Shown: piece by piece, positions 24,544 to 62,835 of the stretch
How positions within the stretch are numbered: the first letter of the stretch is position 1
Layout: each line of letters opens with the position of its first letter
NCBI GenBank assembly: GCA_052327205.1
Contig: JBMRGM010000035.1
Coordinates: 130,138,001-130,202,000 of the forward strand
Source: Somniosus microcephalus
Taxonomy: Eukaryota
Length of the DNA: 64,000 bases
Direction of reading: 5' to 3'
Notes under the pieces: model-generated
Told to the model about the DNA's origin: nothing
The model's input: only the letters and a program-made list of their open reading frames with translations
The model's database searches: none
Made by a program: the position numbers and the translations under genes

Positions 24544-26029
24544 CTAATAAAGCAAAATTAAATCATTTCGGCTTTTATATTAAACTATATAGGCTACCAG
24601 CTTAGAATTTGAAGCTGTTTTTCTTTTCAGTCGAGATATTACAGCAACATTGCCAGTAACTGTAGAAATATTTTACTAACTATTTTTCTGAATAGTATAA
24701 CTGAATAAAAATGCATGTTTTTAAAACTTCAGCTAGCCAATATGATTCAAACTTTATTCTGCTTTGTCTGCCAGTATATGCAACGTACTTTAAATTTAGT
24801 TCCAGTAAATATTCATGTTAACCAACGCATGTTGTTCTTTGTAAATAACAAGCATGTGTGTAGCACGATCAGGAATAAAAAATCAACATTTTCAACTACA
24901 AAAATTTGAGAGACTGGGGATTAAAGAAACTAAATTATGACGCCCGTACTAATTATAGATACTAGACAGGCAGTTTGTAAAGTGGACTGTTGGATCACTT
25001 ATGTACTGCCAAATAAAACAAATGTCTCCCCAATAAGCATGCTAAAAAAGGTAAGGAATAAATAATAGAATTATGACAAAGGCAATGGCACATGGAATTA
25101 AAATACATTAAAATTAAAAGGCCAGCCTTTATATTATTCAATGGTGGAGCAAGCTCGAAGGGCTGAATGGCCTACTCCTTATCCTATTTCTTATTTCATA
25201 TGTTCTTATGAAGGCGGTCACCTGCAAACATAGATTGGTAGGTGGCAAAAAGCAAAGAGTAAAGGTTAATAGGGAAGTTAACTGTACTGGAAAAATGTTG
25301 CCATTGTTATTCCACAGTGGTCTGGGGCATGTATGATCCTTCTATATACTTAATTATTGTACACCGAACAATTGAGGGAACAATATAAAAATTGCTTTTG
25401 GCATCAGTTTGAATAATATACAAACTGTGACAAGGGTTGTGAAACGTTGCAAGAATACATAGAAGGATGAATAGATGGGTACCACTTTCAATTCCATGAA
25501 GAAGAATGCGAAGTAATGTGGCAAGTTAAGTAGATTAAGCCATAAAATGCCACATGCAATCTAAGGGTGTTGCATAACAAAAACAAGAAGATAATGTTGA
25601 ACTTGTGCAACATCTTAGTAAGGTCAAAGTGGGACTAGATGTCCGCGATTTCTACTTCAGTAAGCCTGGTGCAGTCTCAGCTTGCACTTGGGGAAGTTCT
25701 ATAGCCCAGCTGCCATTTTTGGAGAATAAGTGTGAACAGGCTGCTGTTGTTGGTGCCATTTGCCGGTGAAAGCTGTATTAAAGTCATATATCCAAAGTCA
25801 TTATGTGCAGATCGACATTCCATAGCATAGGAAGTTTATCAAAGTAATGGAAAGTTGCAAAAGATTCATCAGGATGTTACCATCTATTTCGAATTAGGTA
25901 AGAAGAGAAACTACAGCTGAAAAGATTATGGATAGAAATGATCAAGTACAGTCGTTCAAGATTCCAAAGCATTGCGTTGTGTAAAGTATAGACAGTTTCT
26001 ATTCATGTAGCAGATTGTTTCCACTGATG

Positions 26030-26558
26030 CCCTTGTTACCTCTTGACTTGAGTATTCCAATACTCTCGTGGCCAGCCTCCCATCTTCCCTACATAAACAT
26101 GAGCTCATCCAAAACTCTGCTGCCTGTATCCTAACACGCACCAAGTCGCATTCACCTATCACACCTGACCTACATTGGGTCCCCATTGACAATGCCTCGA
26201 TTTTAAAATTCTGATCCCTTTTTTCAAATTCCTCCAAGGTCCCGGCCCTCCTATCTCTGTAATCTCCTCCAGCCCTACAAACCTCCGAGAAGTCTGAGTA
26301 TCTCTAATCCTGGTGGATTTTATTCGCTGCACCATTGGTGGCCGTGCATAACGCTCTGTGAATTCCCTTCCTATACCTCTCCATCTCCTCCTTAAGATGC
26401 TCCATAAACCCTACCTCATTGAACAGCTTCTGGTCATCTGCCCTAATATCTCCTCATGTGGTTCAATGTCAAATTCTGTGTATTATCGCTCCTGTGAAGC
26501 GCCTTGGGCAGTTTACTACGTTAAAGGCGCTATATAAATGCACGTTGTTGTTTTTGAT
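26030..26558 (+). mobile_element. L2 LINE 3' fragment, left arm only
   Basis: ELIQNSAACILT-type sequence and tail GGCGCTATATAAATGCACGTTGTTG. The empty site is at ~62690 in the right arm. Confidence 0.85.
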
Positions 26559-26969
26559 GTTTTGTCAAACCGTAAGGACTGGGAACACATTTAAGATAAT
26601 GACAGCAAGATTTGAAAGGGGGCTTACAAAATTATTTACATAGAAGTTGGCCAGAATTGTTTTTATCTATTCCACACCCCGTTGGGTTCATATTTAATAT
26701 ATCAGCTTGGTAGGCACTATTGTCTATTTGGGGCAATTTTTCAGCAACTGTGAGATAAGCATTGACTGGGAGAATGCAGTGAGGACAATCTGTCGACGAG
26801 GCTCTCAGGCCACTAACTGAACCTGCCATTTATTTATTTATGCTCTCCGCCCACGTAGCTTCGATTAAAATCAGCCCTTTTGCATTCTATAATATCATAT
26901 AATTCTTCAAATAATATATCTCTTCCAAATAAAATATTTTATGAAGCGTTGAACATAATAAGCATTTAC

Positions 26970-26996
26970 CCGTGTCTTTCTGAATGACAGCTTTGT
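26970..26996 (-). CDS. Copy A 27-nt microexon (DKAVIQKDT)
   Basis: CCCCTTAACAG|...|GTAAAT; paralogue at 62211-62237. Confidence 0.85.
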
Positions 26997-27271
26997 CTGT
27001 TAAGGGGGAACATATTAGTTTATAACGTGCATCAAAGAATCTTGTGCTGAACTATGCTTTCACAAATTGCTTTTTGCAAGAGTAGATCCATAATGAGCAA
27101 AATGGCCCGAATATTTCACCAACAATGCATAGTTGCTAGCAAATACACAGAATAAGAAAAAAATTAATCGACTTCCGAATGTTTTCTTTAGCAAGTGAAA
27201 TGTAATGATTACCACAGTGCTATATTAATAACCATGTTGGATTATATATGAGTAATGTATTTCCTTCTCAC

Positions 27272-27307
27272 CTTTCTCAGACAGCGCTATTTCAGTAGTG
27301 CCTTTTT
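27272..27307 (-). CDS. Copy A 36-nt microexon (QKGTTEIALSEK)
   Basis: TGTTGTTTCAG|...GAAAG|GTGAGA; paralogue at 61894-61929. Confidence 0.85.
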
Positions 27308-30300
27308 CTGAAACAACAAAAACAAAACATTTCAGTTTCGTGTGCCTAGTTCAGTTTTCTGAGCTGCTCTATCTTTCAAGGCGATTTAATCTTGCCTCTT
27401 CTGCAAAAAAGCTCCATTTAGAGAGCTTTGCAGGTTAGTCCGTTCTAAAATTCCCCACGCCGAGTGGAAAAATGGAAGAAGTTGAGAAAGTAAGTCGTTT
27501 GCTGGTACTAAAGAAATATTAAATATTATAGCTCAATTGAAAGCAGAAAAGCTAGCTGCAAAATGTTGCATTGGATACTGGTGTTGGAAAGTTTATTACG
27601 TTTGTGTGAAATTACAAAGTGAAATGACGTTGGTGATAATAGTGGCTTAGAGACACTAGAGCAGTAGTGTTTTGACATTTGTTTATACGAGAAAAATACC
27701 TAACGAATGCTATGCTTAGCACATATATGTGAAGCACGCAAAGAGTGGTTTTACCACCTTTTGAAGCTGATTCAAAGTTCCTCAATTTACATTTTGTTCT
27801 AAGGGGAAAACGCAAGTAATCAGCAAACCGTAATTGCTCTCTGGCCGAAACAAACCTTGATAACAATAGTTTCAGCCGATTTCATGTCGGTGGTGTTACC
27901 TAGAGCAGATCAACTTTACGAGTTTGTTATCAACCCGTCGAAAAATAAATTTTCATGAAATGTGGGCAATGCAGTCTTAATCCCTTGGATTTTAGAAACA
28001 TAAAAATTGTAAGTAGAGACTCGTTTGTAACCCTGTCTATAGTTTTGAAGTACTGTAAATAATGGATTCGATTATCGATTTGAGAATTTGCATTGGTTAA
28101 TGAGAGCCTAGTCATGCCTAGGCTTTGACATACTTAGTGGAACTGGAGCAAGGAGGATTAAAAGCGTCGTGTAGAACTAGATACTTGAATCTTATAACAA
28201 GCGGAGTAGACATTTCAGAAGTGCACTGACCATAAAGCTTGGATGAACAACACATAAAACTTGGCAATTACACATAAAATGAGGAACAGCTTATCAGACA
28301 ACAGACGTGTCTTTCTGTTATAGATTCCTTTAATAAAGGAGACAGATTAGACAAACAAACAGCGTTATAACTAGTGCGGCTAATTGAATGGAGTGAGTGC
28401 CAATTGCGGACGATTCCAATTATATGCCTGCTGACGGGGAAAACAGCAGAGGGAATACTCAGAAGTCACCTTCCAGAATCAATGGAATTTTGGTTCGCAA
28501 CTTCGTTTCCGACACAACAAATGCAGCTATTTTGGTCATAAGAAGCTAGTATTTATATTAAATAATGATTAGGAGAACAAAAATATACAGGCAAATTGCA
28601 AACTTCCGGAGGGAACGGGTTCCGTCCTTAGACTTGGAACGTTAAGCATCACCAGAGCAGAGTGACCAAAGGAATCTCGGGCAGGGTCTATATTACGCTG
28701 GTGACTGGATCCGCCTCATTTTCCTTCCATTCAAATTAAGGAAAACCCTACAGTCTCTTCTTATCCAGGCCATGCTTAACGTCTAAACGATAAAGACGAA
28801 ATTATAGTCCTGAATAGAGTACAGTGAAGATAAGTGTAAAATGATTAGTATAGTAGATACTAAATGAAATCAAGAGCCCGATTTGAAAATGAGCGCTTCC
28901 ATATCGTGGGAGGGGGGAAGAGCTAGACTACAGTGTTCTAACGATCTCATGGTTGGAGTTCAATTGCGTTTTTGAACGAGCTGCTCACGCTTTCCAAAAG
29001 CAGCGTGCCCATGGAAAGTGCTGTAATTCGGGTGGCTCTAACGTTGAGCCCAGTCAACGAGCGGAGGGACGCGCATTGGGAGGGGGCGCATTCTTTGCGG
29101 CCAGGAAGAACAGATTATTTGAAAGTCCTTTTTTCTTTTCAAGTTTTTGCAGAGGCTTCAGATGGTGTCTTTAATTGGCTGAGTCTCTCAACGCCAAGTA
29201 GTAGGGTCCACCTGCCGGTACATTAAAATTGCACGGCGGTCCTATGGATATCACATGCCTCAGATTTGCATGGGTTAATGAGTATAGGGCCTGCTCGCCG
29301 TGAATGATGCGCCATCCATTTGAAGGTCCCTATGAAAAAGGGGAGCCCCCACGTCAGTGCAAAAGGGATGGGTAAAAACATTCTCATTTTCCTCACCCTA
29401 CCGCCCCGTTCCAACCCTACGGGGAAGAGAGGCGATTGGACATCGGCGTCAAAGAGTATGAATAATTATACAGCCTAGGTTAGGAAAAATATTTCAAACT
29501 GTCAGCCCGAAGCTAAGTGTCAGAAAGAGGAGCCAGCTTTATCTCTTTATCTGTACTATTTAGATAAGTCTAGAGCTTAACGTTGGTTTTATTCCTGTAC
29601 AAAGTATGGGATAGACCCATTTTGCAATACTTTATGAAGTTCCTGTCATTTTAGCATAGAATGCAGTTCTCTTTCAAAACCAAAAGCTTCAAGATAAATG
29701 GAAAGAAAATTCATGATCTCCCTTGCGATGAGCAACTGACAGCAGATTATATGACTTAAAGCTAAACAAGCTAATGCATTTGTCAAAACAACAAAGGAAT
29801 CTACTTTCAAAGCGTTAGAGAAACAATTTAATTGGCAGGGCCAAAGCAGCTAAAAAAGGAGACACAGATCTCCTATCCAGTAAATTTGTGAACTTCAATA
29901 ACTCAAAGGGGATCAACGCACACAGGACACCAGAAACACGAACGAACAAAGGTTTCGTACATGTCACTCAGTGCGGCAGCTATCCCTGTATAAATGGTGC
30001 AGTGAAATAAAGTACAACAGTTGCTGTCACTTATTTCTTCAGACCGGAATGGAAATGAGGCCACTGGGAAAATAAAATGTAACCATACTGGCTGCAATTA
30101 CTCGAAGGTTATCTTCTTCAATTAACATGTAGTGGACGAGGATGTGGTCAAATATTATTACAAAAGGGCAATTTTCAAATGCTGGTTAATATCTTAAAGT
30201 GTTCCGCATTAGTTTCAAAACAACCATAAACCAATGCGTTGCCTCATAATAACAACCTAAACAAATTCGTACTGAATGTTTAACTAATTAGAAACGAATG

Positions 30301-30311
30301 TTTTTGCTCAC

Positions 30312-30347
30312 GTATGCTTTTTAGGCTCTCCCTCAGATATTCCAGTT
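30312..30347 (-). CDS. Copy A 36-nt microexon (ELEYLRESLKSI)
   Basis: CTGCTTTTCAG|...|GTGAGC; the paralogue at 58887-58922 encodes the same peptide. Confidence 0.88.
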
Positions 30348-30893
30348 CTGAAAAGCAGATCAAAATAATTTTTATATATTTCACACTAATGGCTGAAAAG
30401 CAAATCATATTTTATATATTTCACACTAAATGGTTATAACATTATAATTCAATGGATGCCCCGAATAAAACGCAGAGGAGAGGTACAATAAGACCCATGC
30501 CTCAATCAGCATCATCATCATCCAGAATCGCGCTATAGCATTTTAATCTTGTGAGCGTACTGTTTGTATGTTTGTGAAAGGGTTGCAGTATAATTGCAGA
30601 ATCTGAAGAACGACCACGACATACTGTTTTGTTTACAGTGGTGTCCTGCAAAAGAGTCTTGGGTTTGCTATCTCGGACGAGGAAGGCATGGTGGGGATGG
30701 GACCACGAAAACTAGAGAAACAGAAACATCAGCAACGTTAGGAGTAAGAAACAATAAAAACAGAAATGGCCAGATGCAAGAGAAATTTGACAGCGCCATA
30801 TTTGAAACATCTTTTCAAATCAGTAAGTAAAGTCAGACACCTCTATTATGGCCTTAGAGTGCCGCCAACAATGCCCATTTTCGAAGTAGTCAC

Positions 30894-30920
30894 CTTTCTC
30901 TTGCAGACTGAGTTTATTTG
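30894..30920 (-). CDS. Copy A 27-nt microexon (ANKLSLQEK)
   Basis: TTCCTCAACAG|...GAAAG|GTGACT; paralogue at 53855-53881. Confidence 0.85.
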
Positions 30921-31207
30921 CTGTTGAGGAATAAAAAGTGATATAAATGCGCAGTATTGATGAGGTATGTATTCATGTTCAAACAGACATGAAATGAATT
31001 AAAGCAAGCCCTGTATGTAATGGAGTAATGTGGATGTATATTTGAATAATGATATTGCTGCAGAAAATATTGTATGCAACTCAGCCTTTTGTCCTTTATG
31101 CAATAATGGAATGCTGTTAAATTAAAGAGCCTCTTTGCAACAGAGTTAAACGCCCATAAAATATGTACATGAGTGTGCACAAGTTGCGAGCTATTTGTTT
31201 TTCTCAC

Positions 31208-31243
31208 CTTTCTCAGTTAGCATTCCAATGATGTTTTTCAGTT
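31208..31243 (-). CDS. Copy A 36-nt microexon (ELKNIIGMLTEK)
   Basis: TCATTCATTCAG|...GAAAG|GTGAGA; paralogue at 53515-53550. Confidence 0.85.
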
Positions 31244-31863
31244 CTGAATGAATGATCAAAAACTTGAGCTTTATTTTTCTACTGTGAATTCAGTTTGCTT
31301 CCACGTTTACTGCTTTCTTTCTTTCACTTTGTCCTTTAATAATTCCATATTCCTGTAGGCTGAAAATGATTACACGCAGTGCTACAGCTAATCTATCTAT
31401 ATGACGTTACTTTGTGCTTTATGGATTCGGTATGTTGGCTCAACAGTAAAGAACAGAACATTAAACAATAACTCGAACCTAACGCGCCCGGCATGACCTG
31501 GTGTTTTCGGATCAGACACCTATTTTACAGTGTAAGCGGATAATTTGAATTTCGAGCGATAATGCAAACTGGATGATATCGAACCAGCTGGCCGTTGTCA
31601 AATCGTTCGCTTTACACTATCGCTAAAAAATCTCAGATTTTACCCTCTATTGACTAAAAATTAAACGAAAATCTGGTAGCCTGTAAAATACTGGCAGATC
31701 CACTACGGCCTGTTTTCCACGCGGCAGTACAACTAAAAATTCACCCCAACATTTTACTTAACACACGCTGGGGTAGAGCATGGAACATTCCTACTCTCAT
31801 TGGCTGAGCTATGCTTTAGATAAACGGTCAAGCCATCTCCTGAGCTCTTCAGTTTTTATAATT

Positions 31864-32784
31864 GGCCTGAATTTTCCGATCGGAGGCTTCCTGCGGGCGG
31901 ATGCCTTCGATCAGAAAAAATCTATGCAATTACCTGCTGGCTCCGTAGTTCCCGAGACTTCCGATCCTGGGCTTCTCCACTACGAAATGCGCAGAGGCCA
32001 AGGTATCCCAGGGGCGCATGCGGGTCGCAAGCGTCCCTGGGATTACGTGGGACATGGGGAACCAATCAAAGAAGGGAATCCCCCTTCACACTTTTGACAG
32101 GCCTGTTCGCACAGATCTGTCAAAAGTATGAAAGGGGATCACATTTAAAAATACAGTTAAGCATAATTCTTTTTTAAATCACTTTTAAAATTAGTTAAAA
32201 ACTTGAGCTTTATTTTTCTACTGTGAATTCAGTTTGCTTCCACGTGTACTGCTTTCTTTCTTTCACTTTGTCCTTTAATAATTCCATATTCCTGTAGGCT
32301 GAAAATGATTACACGCAGTGCTACAGCTAATCTATCTATATGACGTTACTTTGTGCTTTGTGGATTCGGTATGTTGGCTCAACAGTAAAGAACAGAACAT
32401 TAAACAACAACTCGAACCTTTAAATAAATAAAATTCTTGAAAGAAATAACTAAAGTTTTTTACGGGGCTAAAAATAAACTTACCTTTTTAAAAGTATAAA
32501 TGAATGAAAACAACATTCTGTATTTTTTTAAACTCTTATGCTGGTAAAACCAGGCATAAGATTTGTAAAGGATTTCAGCGGGCGGAAGTTGTGCAGAACG
32601 CTCAACTCTGCCTGCGGAGGCCCTTTTCCCGGGCAGGCAGATAATCAGTCAAGAGGATCCTTGAAAGGTCGCAAGTGCCGATTTGTAGCGCATGCGCTTC
32701 GAATGCCTGAAACTGGCACTTGCCCGGCCCCTACGCGTGCGTACACACCTCGTACGCATCCGTGGGGGTCGGAAAATCCGGCCC
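31864..32784. mobile_element. Family-A MITE carrying a captured 223-bp host segment, left arm only
   Basis: TIRs GGCCTGAATTTTCCGA and TCGGAAAATCCGGCCC with ATT on both flanks; 32197-32419 duplicates 31258-31480. Confidence 0.85.
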
Positions 32785-32999
32785 ATTCTGCCACTCCATA
32801 TGCATATATATATTCTGCTACCAATTAGGAACGTTCAGTTGTTTCAAAGTGAAAATAATAATCTCCTTACGTCCCAGTGGAGAAAGGCGTCTAGTGTTAT
32901 GGTTTAAATGGATTCGTGCTCGATGTTCATGTAAGTGATTTCAATGCACACAGAAACTTGTTTTTCTTTGGTAAGTGTTCCATTTTTTCAAGAATGTAC

Positions 33000-33026
33000 C
33001 TTTCTCTTTTTCACGCAGCTTGCTTT
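33000..33026 (-). CDS. Copy A 27-nt microexon (ESKLREKEK)
   Basis: TTCCCCTATCAG|...GAAAG|GTACAT; paralogue at 52609-52635. Confidence 0.85.
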
Positions 33027-33340
33027 CTGATAGGGGAAGCAACACATATTTAAAATGAACATTGTAAACAAACAACGTGAGTTATTTTGCGTATTATGGA
33101 ATACGTCTATTCATGCTTTACATTAAGTATTGCGACATTGAGTAATCCGTTTCAAATTAGCGCAAACTGTGAATATTGCAGCACTTACACAGGGCTGTCT
33201 TTTGTTACACGACTCTTGATGAAAAGTGCTAAAAGCTGGTGCTGGTATTAGAAAACAACAGTTTTCATTATTATAATAGAGAAAATATGTTACGAGTGCA
33301 GCAATGTATTTTAATGGCTTCTTGTTTTTTTATTTCTTAC

Positions 33341-33376
33341 CTGCACGTCTTAAAGTTTCCACCAGTTTTGCTATTT
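33341..33376 (-). CDS. Copy A 36-nt microexon (EIAKLVETLRRA)
   Basis: TTTGCATTACAG|...GCAG|GTAAGA; paralogue at 52276-52311. Confidence 0.85.
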
Positions 33377-34284
33377 CTGTAATGCAAATATATGACACTG
33401 AAATCTCTTGGAATGTACATCAAATATTTTTCACTGTTTAAATTATGAATTTTTATTTCTAATGGTCGATGGGATGGATACTTAATCCACGATTTTCATA
33501 GCCCATATTTTGAACAGCTGTATTTGACTTATTCCCGAGATCTGGAAATGAAAATCGGGTAGCTTGTATAAAGGGCAGCGATCCACAACGCCAGTTTTAC
33601 GTCTGGCTGGCAAATTGAAAATACACCCTAAAGGAAATTAAAATGGTGTAATGCCTGTAACAGGCAACTGACCCGCAACGGCAGGTTTACCTCCAAGCAG
33701 CAACATGGAAATTTACCCATTGGCAATGGGAATAAAATCTTGCAGGTTCTATAAAGGGCTGATTTACTGCCCAAGTGGTGAAGGTGAAATTTACGTCCTA
33801 TGACCGAAAACAACAATAGTCGACTGGATTCAATGCCAGTTTACGTATTGTGTATTAAAATATATACACAAGACATGTTGGCAACTTTTGAGCAGCTTCA
33901 AACATCTAGCAATTGGCGAAGAACTAGCAAACTGTTACCAAACAAAGTTTAACAATGGAGGCTGGGGAGAGGAAAGCTTCTGATGCTCTTTGAAAAGTCA
34001 ACAGATATTACTGAAGCGTTGAATTATTTTGTACTGAAATAAAGCATAAATGCAGGAAGATGACATGGGTTGTGTAATTGCTGAAGATGCCTCTATTTTG
34101 CAATTGGAGTAAATTCAGTTCAGCAGACCTCCCTGACCCTGTGCCAACGCATTTTCAATGAAGCAGCACAATAATGCGAACCGAATTTCATTAATTGCAT
34201 ATACTGAACATATGCTATTAAATATTTTGGATATATTGAGGGTCACACAAAAATCCGTTCCCATTTGAACTTGGGCATTCTTAC

Positions 34285-34305
34285 CGCCAAACCAGCCCTC
34301 AAAAT
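34285..34305 (-). CDS. Copy A candidate 21-nt microexon (DFEGWFG)
   Basis: GTTATTTCAG|...GCG|GTAAGA, phase 1-1; no counterpart seen in the right arm. Confidence 0.5.
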
Positions 34306-34647
34306 CTGAAATAACGTATCCCAATAAATAACCTGATTGCGTAAATTCATATTAAGTACTTAACTAAAGATGAGTAAAAAAAATTAATTTCACTGATTTA
34401 TAAACCCTAATCTCCCTCCAGTCAGAAATTAACAAAACAAAGGGTCAGATTTTGTGGTAGAAATACCGGTAAGGCTAACAACGCTCACTGTTATTTAAGT
34501 GTAACTCAGACAGGAACTTGCGGTGACCACACGTGCTCAATTAAATGCTGAAATTAGGCAGTTGCTGTCAGAGTTGTCCTGCTTCTCCAGAAGCTGCGCT
34601 ACACCAGTAGGCGTGAAGTTGCTGTATTTACTAGATAGATAAACAAT

Positions 34648-35409
34648 GGCACGGATTTTACAGGTTCGATTCCGAAAGCTGTCGTAAGTGCTCAGAGTGG
34701 CACTGCAAGTTCCGGGGTTCCACATGCATTGGTATGCATGAAAACCCAGAAATTGCGATCTGTCAAAATTTGCATTGACAGATCCTTCGCATCCAGTGCA
34801 AAAACACTTTCGTTGATACAGAATTGGGCTATTTGCTCAACTACATCTCAGCAAATGCCCACGAAACCCTTACGCCTGGTAAAAGCAGGTGTAAGGCATT
34901 CTTTTACCAGCATAAGGGTTAAAATAAATGTTAAAATAACATTTTGAATATCATTTAAAAATACACATACATTTTCAATAGTTTAGGTCAATTTGGCCCG
35001 TTTAAAAAATGTTTCAATATATTTTTCAAAAAATATTTTTTATTTTAAATGCTTAATTAAAGGGTCTTTCAAATAATTTTGGACATGTGAACATTTATTT
35101 TTATATAAGTGGTGTGAATTCTTATTTATTTGGGGTTTTCTAATATGCTTATGGGGATTCTGTACGTAAATGGAACTCCCATAAGCATCATAGGAATCCC
35201 CTTTTTAATTGGTTGACCTGGCCCACGTGATCCCAGGGACACTTGCAAACCGCATCGGCCCCTGGGGTTCGTGGACCTTTAAGCAGGTGTACGTCTGCAG
35301 GCCCAGGACCCGAAGAGCCCGAAGTACGGGCGACACAAGGTACGTTCTGATGTTTTTTCGGTTCGGAGGCGTATTCTTCTGGTATGCCTCCAACCGCAAA
35401 TTCAGGGCC
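34648..35409. mobile_element. Family-A-related MITE nested in a family-B MITE (~34441-35630)
   Basis: Termini GGCACGGATTTT and AAATTCAGGGCC with AAT on both flanks; shared CCTGGTAAAAGCAGG...TTTTACCAG hairpin. Confidence 0.7.
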
Positions 35410-35634
35410 AATAAATTCGCCAGAAACAGTTAGGGTTTGTCTATTCCAGCGTAAGTAATTTTCTAACGTAATTACTGCCAAACAACCTCTAAAGCGCTCT
35501 AAATTTATTACTAAAACTGTGGAGTGTCATTCCTTCAGCTTTAATTATCTTTGGAGATTTAAACAATAAATGATTTTTTTACTTTTTCTTACTGTCACCT
35601 TTATCTCTCTCGTTCTCTCTCTTAATCCCACTTA

Positions 35635-44850: not shown

Positions 44851-44852
44851 AT

Positions 44853-50748: not shown

Positions 50749-50866
50749 ATGGCGGCACCTGTTGATGAGTACATAAACATTGGAACAGAGCCCTTTGAAG
50801 AAAACAATTTGAGCCAAGTGTACGATGGCGAAGATAAAGCGAAGTACAAATCCATGAGTGCAAAAG
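50749..50866 (+). CDS. Copy B candidate first coding exon
   Basis: GAAATGG start context; donor AAAG|GTAATT in phase 1; acceptor CTTTTCAG ending at 50620; in-frame TGA at 50728-50730 upstream of the ATG. Confidence 0.6.
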
Positions 50867-53800
50867 GTAATTGCATACAGGAAACAAGTAAAATTCACTG
50901 GAAATCTGATATGTGAAAGAAAGTGTAAATGGGGTAAACTTTCAACTTGCGACCAGGGTTAAAACTGGCATTGGGGATGAATGGAAATAACAATCCAATA
51001 GTTTCTCGCATGATGATCCAGGAGGACGGTGAAGTTTAACTTCACCGGGGAGAAAACGGAGTAGCGGATCGGCTGTCATAGTGGCCCAGATATTCCGATC
51101 GCAGGCCTCCTGCGGGTGGAGGACTGCGATCTGGAAAAATCTGCGCCCTGACCTGAGGGCTCCTGTGAGGCGCACAATTCTGCTGCTGGGCCTCACCAAA
51201 CTTCCGGATTGCAGGGCCCACGTATCCCAGAGGCGCAGGTAGTTCGCAGCCTCCCTGGGATCACGTGGGCCATGGGGAGCCAATCAGAGAAGGGAATCTC
51301 CCTTCATACATTTGACCTGTCAAATATATGAATGAAGATCACCCCAAAACATAGTAAAACTTCAAATAAATTGAATAAAAAATCACATTTTTTAAATGAC
51401 TTGAAAGTCCAATGAATTAACTATTTTAAAAAAAACTTTTAATTTTTGAAAAAAATAATTTAAGTTTTTTACGGGACTAAAAATAAACTTACCTTTTCTT
51501 AAAGTATTTTTAAATGATAAATCAGTGGAAAAAAATTATTTCTTACCTTTTTCAACTCTTATCCTGGCAAAAGCAGGCCTTACGCCTGGTTTTACCAGGC
51601 GCAAGAATTGTAAGTGTTTCCTGCGGGCGGAGGGTCTCCAAAAAGCAGAACTCTCCGCCCGCAGAGGCCCTTCTTGACAGATCAAAAATGCCGGTTTCCA
51701 GCGCATGGGCAGTGCATGCCTGACACCGGCATTTCTGATGTCCCTCTGGGTGGGTAAACAGCGCGTACCCACCCATAGGGATCGCAATATACGGCCCTAT
51801 ATTTTGCCTTAAAAGGAAAATCAGGCGGGGTGTATAACAAACGGCCGTTGGGCTGCGTCCCGTTCTGCACCTCTGTCGAAATTGAATTTTACCCCACACA
51901 ACCCAGTTTCACGACCAGGCAGCAATTTAAACATGTAACCTATGCACCAACCATGCTTTGACATACATTCATTGCATTGATTTGTTATGAGGTCCTATAA
52001 CAGGCACCACAACAGTTTAATAGTCATCCAGGCACATTATCAGATTGGCACCGAGATGTAAAACAAGCATTGCGAATTAACGCCTTTTATACAAACTCTC
52101 TGATTTTAATTTCCATATTTTGTAAATAAATCGCTTACAACTCACTGTTCTCAATCTGGGGCAATGAAAATCGTGGATTAAGTATCACGCCCTTCGACCA
52201 ATAGAAATAAATATTAAAACGTTAAACGTGAAAATAATTGATATAACTACCTAGTGTCATATAAGTGCATTGCAGAAAGCGCAACACTAGTAGAAAGTTT
52301 AAAAATTGCTGGTAAGAACTAACAAATCGGTAGCCATTAAAAAAGACTGTTATGCTCTTAACATATTTTTCGCCATTATAATAATGAAAATGTTGTTTTC
52401 TAAAACTATTACCAGGTGTTAGCTCGTGTTAACAAAACTCCTGTAACAAAAGACAGTCCTGTATAGATGCTACAATATTCACAGTTTGTGCTAATTGGAA
52501 ACTCAGTACGCAATGTTGCATCATTTAACATATCATGAATAGATGTATTCCACAATGCGCAAAATAACTCACATTTATCGCTTTCATTTTTGTTGTTTGC
52601 TATACCAGAACGCATGCTTAAAGAAAAAGAGGAAGGTATACTCTTTAGCACATTCACCAACGTGAACCAATCCCTGCGTGTTCTCGAATCACTTAGCAAA
52701 ATGCGACCAAGAATACATTTGTGCTACAACACGAAGTCTTTTTCTATATCGGGCCTTATGGAGATACACATAGTCACTTTAATACAACTGAACGTTCCTA
52801 AATTGGTACCAGAAATACAATTGGAGAGTGGCAGAGTCCATTTATAAAAACTGAAGTGCTCCTCAGATGGCTTGGCCATCTATATAAAGCATAGCTCAGC
52901 CAATGAGAGCAGTTAAGTTCCAGGTTCTATCCCAGTATGTGTTGAGTGATATGATGGGGTGAATTTTCAAATTAACGGCCACGTGGAAAACAGGTGGCCG
53001 AGGTCTGCCCGCGATTTACACGCCGTTCAATTTAGTTGAACTTGTAGTCAATGAAGGGTATAATCTAAGGGGATAATGTTGTCTTCTAGCAACAGTGAAA
53101 AACTGCGATATCGGATTGCCCACCTAGTATACATCTCTCCCGATTTTCCTTTCTATTGCAGTACAATACACAGCTGATCCGACAACGTCCAGCTTACATT
53201 ATCGTCCAAAGTCAATATTATCCGTGGCACTGTAAAATGGGTGTATGGTCTGAAATCGCCCGTTCCTGCCGGGAGGGTTAGGTGAGAGTTACAGCTTAAT
53301 GTTCTGTTCTTTACTGTTGAGTCAAAATACCGAAACCATAGCGCACAACGCAATGTCATATAGATAGACTAGCTGCAGTACTGCAAGTTTTAATTTCCAC
53401 TCTGCAGGAATATCGGGTCATTAAAGTACAACACGTAAAAAGAAAGCAGTAAATGGAGAAACAAACTGAATTCACGGTAGATAATTAAACTCAAGTTTTT
53501 GATCTTTCATTCAGAATTGAAAAAAATAATTGAAACTCTAACTGATAAAGGTGAGTATAACAAATAGCTAGTATTTACTTTAACATTTGTGAAAACTTTT
53601 ATACATATTTAATGGGATTTAACGCTGCTTCAAGGAGGCTCTTTAAATTAATAAAATGTCTATTGCATAAATGGCAAAGGAGTGCGTTCAATACAGTATT
53701 TTCTGTAACAATTTCATTCAAATATATAATCACTGTATTAGCTGTAGGTTATGCAATCCACGTTATTCCATTAATTCGTTTCATGTCAGTTGGAAAATGT

Positions 53801-56800
53801 ATATATTCCCTGCCAATACTGTGCATTTATTGCTCTTTTATTATTCATCAACAGAAAATTTACTCAGTCTGCAAGAGAAAGGTGTCTACTTCAAAAATGG
53901 GTTGTGTTGGTTATACTGTAAGGCCATAACAGAGGTTTCTGCCTTTAGTTACCAGGTCGTAAATGTCTTGTTTTGCACACTTTGTACAAAACTAATAACT
54001 TGCAGGACAACGGAGCATTACAGTTTAAGTCTTTTAATAAGCATTAGGTCTGATCTTACTCATAACACCACCATGGGGAAAAACATGGCGTTAGGACCCC
54101 TAGCCTGGGTCTTCAAACAATAGTAGTCCTTACAGATGCCTGCAGGCCAATGACAACTCAGCATGTGATCACATGTGAATATAATAGGTATTCCTTACAG
54201 ATGCCTGCGGGCCAATGATAATTCAATATGCAAATGTGACATCCCCTTTCTTTTAAAAGAAAAATGTTATGCATTACTTTTAAACCTTTCTTCTACATAA
54301 TGTTCTCGGTAGCATAAACATATAAGTAAACTCAGCATTTAACTAGCACTGAAAACATCTCAACGTTTAAATAACGATGTAGTTTTTTTTTAGGGCAGCG
54401 ATCCGCCTACACCCTTTGACAGTACACAAGTCAAGGATAACTCTAGGCTTGACCTCTCGTCCCGACCTTGTGTGGTATGGAACTGAGCATGCTCCTGAAT
54501 CGGTCAACAATGCAGGTTCAGGTTTAGGTTCAGGTAAATATGATGTGTTTTGTGTATTGCTCTGTTCATCACACTCTGTTGAACTGATCCTCTCGTCGGA
54601 ATGACGGTGTTGTTCCTTGGTGTTCAGGCGGTGCCTGTGATTGCAGCGGTACACCTGTCCTTCTGGGGTGTGGATGTGATACGATCACTCAGTGTCAGCT
54701 GGCTGGATGACGACTGCTGGCTTCCAGTAGTCATGCTCCTGGATTCTGATGGATTCTCCATTGTGCAGCGACGGCAGTAGTCTAGCTCACCTGTCATCGT
54801 ATCGCTTTTGGTGTTGCTGTCTCTGTACATGTTTTGCATGCACTTGCTTGCAGGTGACGACCTCTGGCTGCAGCTGCTGGTTGGTGCTTGGAAGGATTGC
54901 GCGAAGTCTGTGGCTCATCAACAGCTGTGCTGGTGACTTCAAGTTGGCAACTGGAGTGTTGCGGTACTCAAGGAGACTGATGTAGGGGTCTCTGTTGTCT
55001 GCTTTGGCTTTGTCCATGAGTGTTTCTGCAATCTGGACAGTTTTTACAGCACGGCCATTACTTTGAGGGTAATGTGGGTTTGATGTGACATGTGTGAAAT
55101 CCCATGCCTTGGCAAATGACTCAAACTCTTTTGATTTGTATTGGGGGCCATTGCCTGAGACTAAAGTTCCTACCATGTCATGCCTGGCAAAGGCTGCCTT
55201 TAGCTTGTGGATCACAGCTGCAGATGTGGTGCTGTGAAGCTTGTCCAGTTCAAAAAACCTGCTCTAGTAATCAACAGTCACTATGTAGTCCTCGTTGTTC
55301 CATGTGCACAGATCCGTTGCCGCGACCTGCCAGGGCCTGTCTGGGATACGGTGAGGTATCATGGGCTCTTTGACATTTGCTGGGCGGTGTTCTAGGCAAA
55401 TGGAACATTTTCCGACAATGTCCTCAATGTGTTTGCACATTCCGGGCCAAAACATAAATTCACGTGCTCTTTGTTTGCATTTTTCTATACCCATATGTCC
55501 AGCAAGAATTTTTGTCAACATCTCTTCTCTGAGACTGGTAGGAATGGTGATTTTCTCCCGTTTGAAGACGATTCTGTTGTTTTGTGACTGTTCATCTCTG
55601 TGGTTCCAGAATTCAGATATGCTCTGAGGGCATTTCCTCCTTTCCTCAGGCCATCCTTCATGTATGACCTTGCTCAGCAATGTGAGTTGTGCATCTTTCT
55701 CTGTTCTTGCTCGGATCTCCTTCAGTTTTGTGTCACTCACAGGTAAGCTGTTGTAAACCATGTGCACCTGCACATCCATGCCTTCACTGCGGCTGCTGTC
55801 CTGGTAGCTAAGAGACTTTCTGGAGAGTGTGTCTGCGACAGGAATGTCTTTGCCTGGACGGTGAATGATTGTGAAGTCGTACTTCTGTAGCTGAAGGATC
55901 ATTCTCTGTAGCCTTGGTGGGGCTGCAGCTAGTGGTTTCCTCATGATTGACTCAAGGGGCTTGTGGTCGTATTCCACAATGACTTGTCGGCCATAGACAT
56001 ACTGGTGGAAACGCTTACATCCAATCAGAATTGCATATAGCTCTTTCTTGATTTGAGCATAGTTGATTCCACTGTCTGTGAGAGACCTGGAAGCGTAGCC
56101 AATGGGCTTTCCTTCTTGCAGTAATACTGCACCTAGTCCATACTTTGATGTGTCCACTTGAAGTCTCAGCTCTTTGTTGGGATCGAAATAGGCAAGAGCT
56201 GGTTCTGGTTCTCTGGTGATTAGGTGTTTCATTTTGTGAAATGCTGTGTCATGCTGTTTGTCCCACAGGAACTCATTGCATTGTTTGAGCAACTGACGCA
56301 TGGGTGCATTGATTTCGGAGAGGCTTGGGGCAAACTTGGCTGAATAGTTAACCATTCCTAGTACTGTCTCTCGCTCTGTGCGGTTCTTCGGCGGCTCCAC
56401 CTTCTTGATGGTGGAGATTTTCTCTGGATCCGGCTTAATGCCATCAGTTGAGAGGCGATGCCCGAAATAACTGATCTTGGTGGATCCGACTATGCTTTTC
56501 TCGGGGATGAGCCAGATACCTTTCTCCCGTGATCTTTGTAGTATCACACGGAGGTTCCTGTCATGTTCCTCTCTATTCCTGCCATAGATGAGGATGTCAT
56601 CTACGATTGTGACTACTCCGTCAAGGCCTTCATATGTTTTGTCGATCTTCCACTGGAATTCATCCTGAGCTGAGATAAGACCAAATGGTAAACGCAGAAA
56701 TCGGTAGCGGTCAAATGGTGTGTTGAACGTTGTTAGCTTAGATGACTCTTCCGTGAGCTTGATAGCCCAGTATCCTGATCGTGCGTCCATTACACTGAAG

Positions 56801-59800
56801 TAACGTGCTCCCACTAGCTTGGGTGTGATGTCATCTAACGTTGGTAGAGGGTAGTGAGGGCATTTGATAGCCTTGTTCAAATCTCTGGGGTCGAGACAGA
56901 CTCTCAGCTTGCCTGTACATGGTTTCTCAACCACTACTAACGCGTTTACCCACTCTGTCGGTTCTGTTTCCTGGACGATGATTCCTGTATTCTCCATGCT
57001 CTGCAGCTCCTCCTTCAGGCAACTGCGTAGAGCAAGGGGTATCCTTCTCAGTGGGCAAACCACAGGGGTTGCTGCCAGGTCAAGGTGAATAGTGCATTCA
57101 CCTGGGAATAGTCCGATTCCTTTGAAAACGTCAGCAAACTCCTCCATGACTGTCTGCTTCTCAAGTGGTGCTGTCAATGATAGCACTAGCTTGACGAGGT
57201 CCATGTCTAAACATGCCTTTAGACCTAGCACTGGAGGTGCTCGAGTGTCAACAATGTAAAAGTCCAACATCATGTCACTTTCTTTGTACTTGCATTTCAT
57301 CACGCATGTGCCTTTTACAATGAGCTGCTCACCCCCATAGCTGGTCAGTCTGCGTGAGGTGGGCTGTAGCTCACACTCATCCTTCAAGCTGTGATACTCA
57401 CTCAGAGGAATTACATGAGCCTGAGCTCCAGTGTCTAGTTTAAACCTAAGCTCTGTGCCCTGTTTCCTACCTCAATATCTGCAAAAGCTTGCTCAGTCTC
57501 TGAAATCTGTTTTTTCTGTGACACAGAATCAATAAACAGTTCCTCTGCATTTGACTATCTGGCATTTGGCTGTCACTCACTGTGTGTACTGCTCTTCAAA
57601 AAACAGTCCTGCAAACTTTAGCAAAGTGGTTTCGTTTACCACATTTAGCATATTGCCTTCTTTTGGCAGGGCAATGCTCCTTTTCTCCATGCCAGTTGTT
57701 TCCACAATATCCACAGTTTTTGAAGCGTTTTATGTCTGTGTCGCCCATTTTTAGAACTCTCTCTATTCTTTCTGTTCTGAAACACGCTCTCTGGGCGGTG
57801 TTCTTTGGTGTGTGTCTATTAACTGCGTGCACTGTCTGTTCCTGTGAGCTGCTTGTGGCGCTGGTTATGGTTTTCAACTGTGCTTGGGCTATCTCGTGCG
57901 ATCTAGCTATGTCCATAGCTTTGTCCAGTGTTAGCCCGGACCCAACATTCAAAAATTTCTCTCTCACTTTAGCTGAATGTATTCCAAACACGATGCGGTC
58001 TCTGACCATCTCATCTTTATCTGCATATTCACAGTCTTTTACCAGCAGTTTTAACTCAGTCACGAAATGTTCAAACGACTCACTAGCTCATTGTACTTTC
58101 TCCTGAAACTTGTATCCAGCGAATATCGTGTTTGTCTTGGGCATCACATATGCTTCAAAACGGTCAAAATAACTTTTCAGTACCTTTGCTTCATCCGCGG
58201 TGAGAGACCATGTGTTAAAAATGTCTCTCACTTTTTCTCCGATCCACAGGAGTAGGTAGCTGCATCTTTCTTCCTCCCCTTTGCTTTTCAGCGGACCCAA
58301 GAACATCAACTCTACGTGTTGCTTGAAGTTGCGCCATTCTACAGGTAAGTTCAAAGATTCCCAATCGGTTCGAGGCAAGGGAACTCCAACGATGTCCATT
58401 TGAAATCCCTGTTCTGACACCATGTCTTGTTTTGCACACTTTGTACAATGATAATTCAATATGTAAATGTTACAGTAAAGATGTCTCAAATATGGCGCTG
58501 TCAAAGCTAATTTGCCCCGATCCTTTCTGTTATTATTGTTTCTTACTCCTATTGCGGGTCTTGTTGCTGTCCCTCAATAGTCGTGGTCCCACTCCCACCT
58601 GACCTTTCTCATCAGTGATATCAAGCTCAAGACTCTTTTGCAGGTCTTCATTGTAAACAGAACAATACGCTGCAATCATTCTTCAGATTGTGCTATTGTA
58701 TTGCAACACGTTCACAACCATACAGACAGCAGACACGCACGGCTATAATGTGGTTTGAGATGATGCTGATGGGAGCATGGGTGCCACTGTAGCTCTTCTA
58801 TGCGTGTTATTGCAGCATCCAGACAGTTTTTATAAGCCATTAATATGGAGTATATCAACTAAATTTGTTTTTGATTGTCTTTTCAGAACTAGAATATCTG
58901 CGAGAAAGTTTAAAAAGCATAAGTGAGCAACAACACTAGTTGCTAATTACTTAAACATTCAGGATGAAATAGTTTAGCTTATTATTGCATGGTGACGTAT
59001 TGATTTATGGTTGTTGTCAAACGAATACAGAACGGTTTAAGATATTTACAATTTTATGAAAATTGCCCTTTTGTTGTAATATTGTTCTGTCTACATCCTG
59101 GTCAAATATAAGTAGCCTGTAAAAGATAATTGACGAGGGGTCGCAGCCGATATGATTAAACTTTGTTTGCCCTGTAGCCTCATTTCCTTTCCAGTGTGAA
59201 GTGATAAGTAGCAGCAACTGTTGTAGCTCATTGCACTGCACCACGCAGACATGTATTTACACAGGGGTAGCTGCAACAACATGATCTCTGAATAACATTT
59301 ATAGATGCTTTGTTCATTCTTGTTTCTGGTGTCCTGTATGATTTGATTCCCTTTGAGTTATTGAGGTTCACTCAATTACATAGTAGGATAACTGTGTCGA
59401 GCCCGTCTGCTGCTTTGAACCTGCAAATTAAGTTGTTCTGCTAATGCTTTGAAAGTAGATTCCTTAGTTATTTTGAAAAATGCATTGGTTTGTTTATCTT
59501 CCAATAATATTCTAGGCACGGCATAATATTCTGCACTTCTCAGTTGCTCACCATAAGGGAAATCATAATTTTTGTTTCCTTCAATATTGAAGCATTTTTT
59601 TAAAAATGCAATGGCCTCCATATGGTCAGATGGTAGGAACTACATAAAGTATTGCAAAATGCGCCTATCCCAGACCTTGTACTGGAATAAAACTACTGTT
59701 GAGCTGTAGACTAATCAAAATAGTACAGTTATATAGATATTGCTGGCTCCTCTTTGTGCTACTAAGCTTTGGGATGCCATTTTGAAAGATTTTCCTGCAA

Positions 59801-62237
59801 TGCATACGAAATATTGCTATCATTAGGCTGCATCATTTTTCATACTCTTTCGGTCGATTTTCATTCACCTCCCCTTTGCGTAGAGTGGCAAAAGGGAGCT
59901 AGCAGGATGAAAATGGGAGTGTATTACATCACTCCTTTTCCACTGATGTCAGTGTCTTCCCATTTTGCTGGGAGTCCTCAAATCCACGGCCCATCGCTCG
60001 TGGAAAGTGAGCCCAAGGCTCATTAGCTCCAGCAAATCGGAGCCCTATGAAGTCACTGAATCTCCTTCAATAAAGTTACAAAGAAAAATATTATTTCAAA
60101 TATTTTCTGCTTATCCTAGACGCACATAAATCGCCCCCTCCCAATGCGCGATGCACAGTGGCATCCCCTTTGGATTGCTCCACTCCGCTGACTGGCCTCC
60201 ATGGTATAGCCGCCCGACTTTCTGTCTTTTCATGGGCAGATTGCTTTTGGAAAGTGCCAGCTGCTGATTCATAAAAGCAATGCAAGTCCGGCCATGAGTT
60301 GGTTTGAACACGACAGTCTAGCTCTTCTCCCCGTCACCCTATGGAACCGTTCATTTGCATATCGTTCCCTTGACTTTATTTGATGACTCCATACTAATCA
60401 TCTTACGTTAATGTTCACGGTAGTGAATTGAGGAGTAGAATTTCATCTTTATTGTTTTGGCGGTAAGTGTGGCTTGGGCGAGCAAAGAAAGGAAAATCAA
60501 GCGAAGGGCACAGTGTGCCTCTAACAAAATCTATTGAATTTTCCTTAATTTCAATAGAAGGAAATTCAGACACCAGTGTGTGATAGACCCACCCAAGTTT
60601 CCTTCTTCACTCTGCGCTGGTGATGTTTAACGTTCCAAGTGTCAAGTGGAAACTTGGTGCCTCTGGAATGTTGCTCTCTTACTCATTATTTAATATACAT
60701 GCCAAAGTCATATGATCCATATAGCTGCATTCGTTGCTTCAGAATCTGATTTAGGAACGAAAACTGTATTTATTCCGGAAAGTGACTTCTTAGCATATCC
60801 TCAGCTATTTTCCCAGTCAATATATGTATAATTAGAAAATTCCATGGTCGGCATTCTGTTCATTGAATTAACTGTACTATCCAAGAATTGTTTACATGTG
60901 TATCCTATCCCTTTAATCCCAGGTATCCATAACAGAAAGACTTGTTTGTTGTCTGAAAAGCTGTTCCTCATTGTATTTGTAATTGCAACATTGTGTGACT
61001 TTTTTAATCCACGCTCCATGGTCAGTGCACCTCTAAAATTTCTTCTTTGTCATTCTAAGATTCAAGTAATGGCTGGGTTCGCATTGCCCATCGCACAGAC
61101 TCAAAGACATACTCTAACCTATTCCAGAACATCAAATCTATAGGTTAATACCCATACCTCTGTTCTACCCACAAGGTTCATGTTTCTAAAACCAAATGGG
61201 TTAAATCTGCACTACCAAAACTTGATGAAAACCTATTATTAGAAAGGTTGATAACAAACTCATGAATTTGATGCCCTCTAGGTTACACCACCGATATTAA
61301 ATAGGCTAAACCTATTGCAATCAAACTCTGTTTCGGCAGAAGAGCTGTTAAGTTCGTAATGATTTCTTGTGTATTACTCTTTTTTTTAATGGAAACTGAG
61401 GAACTTACAACTAACGTCAAAAGGTTGATGTAATCATCTCTGGGTGCTTCACTAAATTGTGCTAAGAATAGGTTTTATCAGGTACTTTTCTTATATCAAT
61501 AAATGTTACAATATTATTTAGTGACTGTAAGCCACTATTATCATTAACGTCATTTCATTATATCATTTCACACAGCACCAATAAATGTTTCGATACAGTA
61601 TTGGATCCAAAATTTCTAGGCTAATGTTTCTGCTTTCAATTAATCTATCATAGTCAATACTTGTTAAGTAACAGCAAAAGATTTACTTTCTCAAGTTCTT
61701 CCCTTTTTGCACCTGATGCGGGGAATTCGGCAGTGAGTTCCCTTTGAAGATTAGAACGGACTATTCTTCAAAGGTCTCCATTTGGAGCTTTTTGCAACAG
61801 AGACATTAAAATTAATTCCCCTTGAAGCATCGAACAGCTGTGAAATCTGAAGTAGGCACAGCATAACTGAAGTGTTTTGATTTTATTTTTTAGGAGAAGG
61901 TACTACTGAAATAGCGCTGTCTGAGAAAGGTGACGAACAAAATAATTTTCTCATATTTAATCCATCATGCTGATTAATATGGCACTGTGATAATGTGGTA
62001 CAGCCCATTTCACTTGCACAGGAACTTATTCGGAAGTCATTTAATTTGTTTCTTAACCTATGCATTTTGCCAGCAAGATGCATCGATGGTGAACTATTCT
62101 GGCCATTTTGTTCATTCTGGATCCACCTTTGCTCCAAAATTCATTTGTTAAAACATAATTCAACAAAAGATTTTTTGCACGTTATAAACTATTTTATTCC
62201 CCTTTAACAGACAAAGCTCTCACTCAGAAAGACACGG
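50749..62237 (+). CDS. Copy B: paralogous microexon coiled-coil gene, 3' end outside the window (spliced; overall span given)
   Basis: MAAPVDEYINIGTEPFEENNLSQVYDGEDKAKYKSMSAK-ESATLVESLKIA-ERMLKEKEE-ELKKIIETLTDK-ENLLSLQEK-ELEYLRESLKSI-REGTTEIALSEK-DKALTQKDT, all in frame with AG/GT boundaries. Confidence 0.78.
51083..51797. mobile_element. Family-A MITE, right arm only
   Basis: TIRs GGCCCAGATATTCCGATC and GATCGCAATATACGGCCC. Confidence 0.85.
52276..52311 (+). CDS. Copy B 36-nt microexon (ESATLVESLKIA)
   Basis: CATTGCAG|...CTG|GTAAGA. Confidence 0.82.
52609..52635 (+). CDS. Copy B 27-nt microexon (ERMLKEKEE)
   Basis: TTTGCTATACCAG|...GAAG|GTATAC. Confidence 0.82.
53515..53550 (+). CDS. Copy B 36-nt microexon (ELKKIIETLTDK)
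   Basis: TCTTTCATTCAG|...AAAG|GTGAGT. Confidence 0.85.
53855..53881 (+). CDS. Copy B 27-nt microexon (ENLLSLQEK)
   Basis: TTCATCAACAG|...GAAAG|GTGTCT. Confidence 0.8.
55264..57387 (-). pseudogene. Gypsy pol fragment (RT-RNase H-integrase N-terminus)
   Basis: 707-aa ORF with LRVCLDPRDLN, LPFGL, IVDDILI, YAQIKKELYA and the GHMGIEKC zinc-binding region. The integrase core continues after a break at 54787-55215. Confidence 0.92.
57596..58402 (-). pseudogene. Gypsy gag, interrupted
   Basis: WRNFKQHVELMF, MVRDRIVFGI and CGYCG...CAKCGKRNHFAKVC-type zinc knuckles; stop between the two ORF pieces. Confidence 0.88.
58887..58922 (+). CDS. Copy B 36-nt microexon (ELEYLRESLKSI)
   Basis: TGTCTTTTCAG|...|GTGAGC. 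Confidence 0.88.
61894..61929 (+). CDS. Copy B 36-nt microexon (REGTTEIALSEK)
   Basis: TTTTATTTTTTAG|...GAAAG|GTGACG. Confidence 0.85.
62211..62237 (+). CDS. Copy B 27-nt microexon (DKALTQKDT)
   Basis: CCCCTTTAACAG|...|GTAAAT. Confidence 0.85.
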
Positions 62238-62835
62238 GTAAATGCTTATTAAGTTCAGTGCTTCCGAACATACTTTATTTTAAAGAGATAAGTTATTTGA
62301 ATATATGATATTGCAGAGCACAAAAGGGCAGATTTTGATCAAAGCTGCATGGGCGGAGGGCAGAAAGGCAAAATTGGCAGTTTCGTTAGCGTGACCCTCG
62401 TCACCAGATTTTCCTACTGTGCTCTGCCCAGACAATGCTTAACGCGCTCCAGTGCTAAATGCAAAAAGTTACACCAAACAGCATATTGGGCCTAGTAAGT
62501 GGGTGTTTTAACCTAAGAACCCAATTCAAATTGACAAGCAACCAACAAATTTCCTTTGATGGGATCTGATTCAGCAACAGGTTGTGGCAAATCAAATTCT
62601 AGCCACCCTCTGTGTAAATATTTTTGTAAGTTCTCTTTTAAATCTAGTTTTAATTTTCTTAAATGTGCTCTCAGTCTTTACTGTTTGGCACATCAGTGGA
62701 AACACTCTGGCCCACTAATAGAATCAAATTGGTCTAGTTTCTGCTCTTTACTAATTAAAAATCCATGGTAACATCCTGATGAATCTATTGCAACTTTCCA
62801 TTATTTTGATAAACTGCTTATGATAAGGAACATAA

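Follow-up and report, generated by a model that had tools for sequence, protein, structure and literature searches.

A diverged palindrome in the Somniosus microcephalus genome, probably an ancient inverted duplication of a coiled-coil/B30.2 gene

A 64,000-nt stretch of the Somniosus microcephalus genome (assembly GCA_052327205.1, contig JBMRGM010000035.1, positions 130,138,001 to 130,202,000, forward strand), hereafter called the window and numbered from its first letter, contains a palindrome whose two diverged arms flank a short spacer. Our preferred reading, to which we give a probability of about 0.7, is an ancient one-step inverted duplication of a gene for a coiled-coil/B30.2 protein, in which the arms have diverged, the left copy is dead, and the right copy is the likely survivor. 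In this scheme, a fold-back or a template switch during replication, around a loop of some hundred bases, would have copied a cartilaginous-fish gene together with its upstream DNA, yielding paralogues that read away from the centre. Thereafter, the arms diverged freely and evenly, without gene conversion, while gaining separate transposons, and purifying selection kept both copies most of the time; the left one became a pseudogene more recently, and the right one is likely to have survived.

Self-BLAST of the window revealed an unbroken reverse-complement anti-diagonal running inward from 25818-25913/62830-62735 to 42575-43208/44605-43949, in agreement with the initial annotation, which had placed an old inverted duplication at ~25830-62830. 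With sensitive settings, 23 high-scoring segment pairs were obtained, from which 12 on-diagonal blocks were selected as collinear, the 11 off-diagonal repeat matches being excluded from the counts. These 12 blocks are in exactly reverse order in the two arms (Kendall tau -1, p 4e-9), forming a chain rather than the scatter of dispersed-repeat matches that the annotation had named as the opposing outcome. The arms align over 9,799 ungapped columns with 76.5% identity (Kimura two-parameter distance, K2P, 0.28), and 12,605 nt align on the opposite strand versus 1,706 nt on the same strand. A second partner within the window exists for 312 of the 9,799 left-arm columns, i.e. 97% have a single partner and almost all of the aligned DNA is single-copy. 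The previously noted 162-nt block with 21 differences (35920/49346) is real and is the best of the whole alignment. Other blocks are more diverged, and each arm carries private insertions, as noted, e.g. a Gypsy-type element whose site in the left arm is empty. The spacer, estimated earlier at ~0.74 kb, is 740 nt long. The intervals 35633-33664 (left) and 49633-51994 (right) share no homology except for one repeat family. The outer end given as ~62830 is the end of the match and need not be the breakpoint, and 37 kb is a lower bound for the palindrome because a long terminal repeat (LTR)-type element begins at this point and runs to the edge of the window.

The palindrome is real DNA and not an assembly artefact. 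Among the contigs listed for sequencing run X5, which derives from a related organism in another, independent study, eight, with 6.7% differences, are distributed over the two arms. One contig (42450-43525) crosses the junction of the left arm and the spacer, another (43741-44589) crosses the right junction, and none of those listed covers the entire spacer. Because a relative diverged by ~7% carries both arms and both junctions, an assembly fold-back is not the explanation, as the initial annotation had concluded from the age of the arms. Contigs of a second run, X1, also match both arms, with 0.4% differences over eight listed pieces; this run is possibly the source of the assembly itself and then adds no independent support.

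The 6.7% differences in the relative, set against the K2P of 0.28 between the arms, indicate that the duplication is ~4 times older than the split of the two species. Whale shark and zebra shark differ by a synonymous divergence (dS) of 0.061-0.111 after ~50 million years (My) (PMC13100897). Scaled on this pair, the separation of the arms dates to roughly 130-230 My ago and that of the relative to 33-60 My ago, a rough estimate that covers alignable DNA only and is loosened by the variation of substitution rates among sharks (PMC9826928). Divergence is even along the arms (K2P 0.25-0.33 in all seven segments; no positional trend, rho 0.13, p 0.49), and the longest identical run between them is 32 nt versus ~29 nt expected; the tests of segment divergence, positional trend, and longest run across the alignment gave no sign of gene conversion between the arms. 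Conversion-maintained palindromes are recognized by identity above 99% or by conversion tracts, and the present arms, at 76.5% identity with a longest run of 32 nt, are not of this kind. CpG content does not distinguish the two arms.

Both arms carry a series of 36- and 27-nt phase-1 exons that reads outward, and thus the copies are head-to-head, as had been suggested. When both strands were scanned mechanically for small exons of phase 1, 33 candidates were returned, and two further right-arm exons were recovered from the arm alignment. The left copy comprises 11 mini-exons, from 33376 to 19756, which are followed in frame by a terminal exon at 17971, and the right copy comprises seven, from 52276 to 62237, which pair with the first seven of the left copy. 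The mini-exons translate as a continuous heptad coil, the similarity of which to the coils of related proteins hardly exceeds, if at all, the level given by composition alone (2-55 of 300 shuffles scored as high). The left terminal exon encodes a B30.2 domain; a word-index search with this exon found nothing, and an HMMER search gave 106 hits.

All 28 splice bases are conserved in the seven exon pairs, which are also free of stops and indels, while 12.3 lesions would be expected if both copies were neutral. As the left exons were found by being intact, the fair test is that of the right copy alone, in which ~6 lesions are expected under neutrality and none was seen (P ~0.002). These data show statistically that purifying selection held the splice sites and frames of both copies most of the time, and hence that both were long functional. 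In the left copy, however, the B30.2 exon carries both an in-frame stop and a frameshift. Two lesions would correspond to neutral evolution over about the final eighth of the elapsed time, with a wide error, and the probability that both fall in the B30.2 exon is 0.17 if the whole gene died. The left copy therefore looks broken, having become a pseudogene more recently: besides the two lesions, it has probably lost its start exon, no homologue of the right copy's candidate being recognizable in the left arm. The right copy appears open as far as it runs inside the window, its 3' end lying outside, and is likely to be the survivor.

A doubtful alternative is that neither copy is alive any longer, both being pseudogenes derived from a butyrophilin-like gene that was once anchored in the membrane and the 5' exons of which have decayed. 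Several observations at the 5' end and in the exons weigh against a living right copy. Its candidate first coding exon, which contains an ATG and is without counterpart in the left arm, yielded no homologue in two weak searches, and the interval in which it lies holds another ATG/donor candidate that arose by chance. Two RNA runs of unstated tissue, of which 24 and 31% were read, have zero depth in the bins holding this exon and the first mini-exons of both copies, although exons of 27-36 nt are hard to align from RNA reads. For these reasons, the right copy may also be silent or dead. Further, differences between paired mini-exons are distributed over the codon positions as 11/13/15, with no third-position bias. 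A 166-nt candidate exon upstream (47185-47350/39118-38947), potentially coding for a membrane segment, is interrupted by a stop in both copies and has lost its donor on the left; its codon signal is not significant (p 0.14), and none of 270 frame and segment coding tests survived correction (best p 0.003). A 20-nt candidate (49432-49451/35834-35815) has lost its donor on the right. The predicted proteins of two relatives (P0002 and P0114) start with a hydrophobic stretch, which would suit membrane anchoring. On the other side, profiles for IgV, IgC, and RING/B-box matched nothing when the window was searched in six frames, whereas the same search recovered degraded half-domain controls in 58/70, 57/80, and 51/70 trials. 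As both copies begin at the palindrome centre, there is no place elsewhere for exons of these domains. Ig domains are absent from all 11 named or clustered relatives scanned, and the right mini-exons are all intact. In the ATG exon, the single difference listed for the relative of run X5 (50775) is synonymous, most differences falling outside those listed.

The upstream candidates also deserve description in their own right. Each of the 166- and 20-nt pairs retains an intact donor in one arm only, the right arm in the former pair and the left arm in the latter. A homology search with the 166-nt candidate matched only unrelated membrane helices (E 0.06-0.8). The two are candidates for untranslated region (UTR) exons, relics, or chance matches. 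Putative Ig exons judged by eye at 43208-42480 and 41402-40879 were rejected, the profile search being empty.

As regards the origin of the palindrome, the spacer has a history of its own. Its description as mostly CR1 is only just true: one CR1 3' fragment occupies ~400 nt (54%). At the 5' truncation point of this fragment lies an 18-nt inverted copy of right-arm sequence, which matches 44183-44200 at 18/18 positions and the left-arm counterpart at just 14/18. A copy as old as the arms would have stayed perfect <1% of the time, and therefore the spacer was remodelled after the duplication. The 18-nt copy is likely to be the scar of a later templated insertion, and the original spacer may have measured perhaps ~340 nt before CR1 was inserted. 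The inner arms themselves were considered as an ancient CR1 relic, and this was rejected as not significant (scores of 51 and 37 versus shuffle maxima of 56 and 45; spacer-left, 43 versus 40).

The small spacer makes a one-step fold-back or template switch plausible. Inverted duplications with disomic spacers that were attributed to fold-back by Hermetz et al. have spacers of 766-70,466 bp (median, 3,428 bp), and the 740-bp spacer stands at the low end of this published range (PMC3907307). Both have two inverted copies around a short unduplicated spacer; the cases of Hermetz et al., however, are new, megabase-scale, and located beside terminal deletions, whereas the shark palindrome is fixed and >100 My old (PMC3907307). 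ODIRA inverted amplification likewise yields interstitial inverted copies around a small loop, and secondary deletions can make one arm asymmetric, as at 35633-33664/49633-51994, but it predicts a triplication and no third copy is visible within the window (PMC4689423). The junction itself no longer discriminates between mechanisms: the only perfect inverted match at the spacer is off-centre and younger than the arms, and any microhomology of a fold-back junction is unreadable because the spacer was altered later. A direct tandem duplication followed by inversion of one copy, which we regard as unlikely, would give the same end state at this uninformative junction, and orientation patterns alone are compatible with it (PMC3194840). 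In that case, one end of the inversion would have to fall no more than a few hundred bases from the junction of the duplication, and most inverted pairs have been argued to arise inverted (PMC3194840). Since this second breakpoint is needed, a single inverted event is the simplest course.

As for known parallels, among linked duplication events head-to-head pairs account for 13% in zebrafish and 21% in human (13-21% including mouse; PMC3194840). Such linked duplogs share the adjacent 3'-5' 5'-3' arrangement but differ from the present case, in which the alignment of introns and upstream DNA still extends to a sub-kilobase centre, at a K2P of 0.28 (PMC3194840). Sex-chromosome palindromes also have inverted arms with gene copies around a spacer, but their arms are >99% identical by conversion, compared with 76% here. 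Mouse SD12A1 resembles the shark palindrome in its inverted arms, gene copies, and lack of ongoing conversion, and differs in being megabase-scale and 93% identical with a 530-kb gap, versus arms of 76% identity (PMC13688818).

The protein family was approached through the B30.2 domain. Among the 106 hits, those closest to it come from bamboo/epaulette, basking, whale, and cat sharks as well as from a ray, a skate, and a chimaera. These proteins start with a coiled coil and lack Ig, RING, and B-box domains in Pfam; their isoforms differ in 9-residue steps, as 27-nt exons predict. In a quick tree of 102 B30.2 rows made without bootstrap (nine isoform or cluster-mate and two further redundant rows were left out), the window domain falls in an 11-row group (SH-aLRT 100), apart from the butyrophilin and TRIM hits; two of the 11 rows have no species name of their own. 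The left domain is broken and has a longer branch (0.88 versus 0.04-0.45 in the clade). XP_060706632.1, XP_078422387.1, XP_048472904.1, XP_069775385.1, XP_038672308.1, XP_055510696.1, and XP_042191567.1 belong to the same divergent clade, with 28-50% identity to the window domain. The cartilaginous-fish proteins of this clade are labelled 'BTN3A1-like', 'A33-like', or 'TRIM39/58/69-like' by their sources, and their coil lengths vary widely (in proteins of up to 945 aa). A catshark protein of that length (P0120) has ~770 coiled-coil residues before the same type of B30.2, illustrating the large length variation in the family. No description of the gene clade or locus was found in the open-access literature; supplementary gene-family tables of shark genome papers might list the clade.

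Because the predicted gene has neither an Ig ectodomain nor RING/B-box, it is by definition neither a butyrophilin nor a TRIM (PMC8813856), though it is like a butyrophilin tail. Judging from its domain content, the product is most likely a cytosolic coiled-coil dimer presenting B30.2 ligand-binding domains, comparable to a butyrophilin tail lacking its ectodomain or to a TRIM lacking RING and B-box. Small phase-1 heptad exons are a trait of butyrophilin and BG genes. Butyrophilins share with this gene a heptad region followed by B30.2 (in the left copy, with the domain broken), and chicken BG proteins share a very long heptad tail, whereas the shark gene has no Ig domains, only a candidate membrane segment, and a B30.2 in a separate clade (PMC8813856). 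TRIM proteins with B30.2 have the coiled coil and C-terminal B30.2 in common with it, but here RING and B-box are absent and the coil is built from 27/36-nt exons (PMC8813856).

A reading in which the left copy is alive, its coiled-coil-only product pairing with and damping the full-length paralogue, seems quite unlikely. The 11 identified left mini-exons are all intact with both lesions in B30.2, and left-specific DNA upstream of 33376 is present in the relative (contig 33027-34503), so that the asymmetry is old. Plain pseudogenization, however, would give this split of lesions 17% of the time, decayed mini-exons would have escaped detection, and the left copy has neither an identified start exon nor RNA reads. 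We attach equally little weight to a broader version, in which an orphan coiled-coil/B30.2 family peculiar to cartilaginous fishes, with butyrophilin-style mini-exons and no ectodomain or RING would supply cytosolic partners of butyrophilin tails or TRIMs, the left copy being a dominant-negative coil-only paralogue.

The initial annotation had further proposed that the duplication placed both copies around a shared central regulatory region, and this proposal is not borne out. Besides being half CR1 and remodelled, the centre has no CpG island (CpG observed/expected, o/e, of 0.19-0.55 at 42500-45500 versus a window median of 0.65). The RNA reads responsible for the depth at this place are for the most part 90-95% alike and derive from repeats, with no unique reads. 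In bidirectional-promoter pairs, the divergent starts are no more than ~1 kb apart and usually lie on a CpG island; here, 17 kb separate the first identified coding exons (33376 on the left, 50735 on the right). The inner blocks, at 77-78% identity versus 76.5% overall, are no better kept than introns. The best-conserved non-coding block (84% bin versus 76.5%; marginal after 32 bins) is a candidate 5' regulatory or UTR element, and its presence once in each arm suggests that control DNA was duplicated and not shared. The same duplication with a central bidirectional promoter or enhancer co-regulating both copies is accordingly very unlikely, even though the head-to-head orientation is real and ~5 kb of non-coding DNA from the centre to the first exons still aligns. 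An assembly fold-back or a set of dispersed repeats has a negligible probability: repeats do account for some of the off-diagonal matches, and the 96-nt block at the outer end is an old CR1 relic, but the 24% divergence, the private insertions with an empty site, the 97% of single-partner columns, and the arms and junctions found in another species all speak against it.

The type of rearrangement is ordinary, since head-to-head duplicates are common and inverted duplications without conversion are already known (PMC13688818). The present one is an unusually legible old case, with introns that align within 740 bp of the centre after ~130-230 My and no homogenization, and it can be used to date transposon insertions and measure neutral rates within one shark genome. 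The gene family is the more interesting part, as databases label its clade inconsistently as butyrophilin-, TRIM-, or A33-like; if expressed, the gene bears on the early assembly of butyrophilin and TRIM modules in jawed-vertebrate immunity. Coordinates are given in Table 1.

Table 1. Features of the palindrome and of the two gene copies (window coordinates)
Feature	Position	Strand	Basis or remark
Left arm, minimum extent	25818..43208	.	self-comparison
Right arm, minimum extent	43949..62830	.	self-comparison; cut off by LTR-type element and window end
Unduplicated spacer, 740 nt	43209..43948	.	self-comparison; junctions crossed by contigs of the relative
CR1 LINE 3' fragment in spacer	43494..43893	-	~400 nt, 54% of spacer
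18-nt perfect inverted copy of right-arm 44183-44200	43893..43910	-	at CR1 5' truncation point
Best-conserved block, left copy	35920..36081	.	21 differences/162 columns; no coding frame found
Best-conserved block, right copy	49185..49346	.	arm alignment
Candidate first coding exon, right copy	50735..50866	+	acceptor, ATG 50749 in good context, 39 codons, phase-1 donor
Right mini-exon, 36 nt	52276..52311	+	arm alignment
Right mini-exon, 27 nt	52609..52635	+	arm alignment
Right mini-exon, 36 nt	53515..53550	+	scan and alignment
Right mini-exon, 27 nt	53855..53881	+	scan and alignment
Right mini-exon, 36 nt	58887..58922	+	scan and alignment
Right mini-exon, 36 nt	61894..61929	+	scan and alignment
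Right mini-exon, 27 nt, last inside window	62211..62237	+	scan and alignment
Left mini-exon, 36 nt, first identified left coding exon	33341..33376	-	scan and alignment
Left mini-exon, 27 nt	33000..33026	-	scan and alignment
Left mini-exon, 36 nt	31208..31243	-	scan and alignment
Left mini-exon, 27 nt	30894..30920	-	scan and alignment
Left mini-exon, 36 nt	30312..30347	-	scan and alignment
Left mini-exon, 36 nt	27272..27307	-	scan and alignment
Left mini-exon, 27 nt	26970..26996	-	scan and alignment
Left mini-exon, 36 nt, beyond paired region	24508..24543	-	scan
Left mini-exon, 27 nt, beyond paired region	22658..22684	-	scan
Left mini-exon, 36 nt (48-nt form from 21291 also open)	21244..21279	-	
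Left mini-exon, 27 nt, last before B30.2	19756..19782	-	scan
Left terminal exon, B30.2 (PRY-SPRY)	17470..17971	-	in-frame stop 17718-17720, frameshift near 17590
Gypsy-type LTR retroelement in right-copy intron	53964..58474	-	5-bp target-site duplication, empty site in left arm
Probable second LTR element interrupting right arm	62836..64000	+	start 62836-62853, primer-binding-like site 63100, gag-like frame
750-bp repeat copies	15782-16548, 20316-21215, 22879-23624, 31855-32785, 34869-35413, 46136-46855, 51077-51801		

Some further repeats and neighbouring features were identified. The Gypsy-type element has interrupted reverse transcriptase (RT), RNase H, and integrase frames, and one of its LTRs is internally deleted; zinc-knuckle matches in the second LTR element are weak. 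One non-coding repeat family of 750 bp is represented by about seven copies, which are 63-87% alike and occur in both orientations, and transcribed reads pile up there. In the left arm only, 39186-39324 and 39484-39613 form a local inverted repeat (140 bp, 77%) on either side of a block of which the right arm has one copy. A 223-bp stretch of left-arm intron DNA has recently been copied in direct orientation (98.7%; 31258-31480/32197-32419), the copy lying in a MITE-like repeat 940 bp away. Outside the palindrome, a CpG island at 6250-7000 (GC 0.55, o/e up to 1.08) is probably the promoter of a neighbouring gene, and GC-rich degenerate tandem-like repeats are located upstream of it at 5700-6520.

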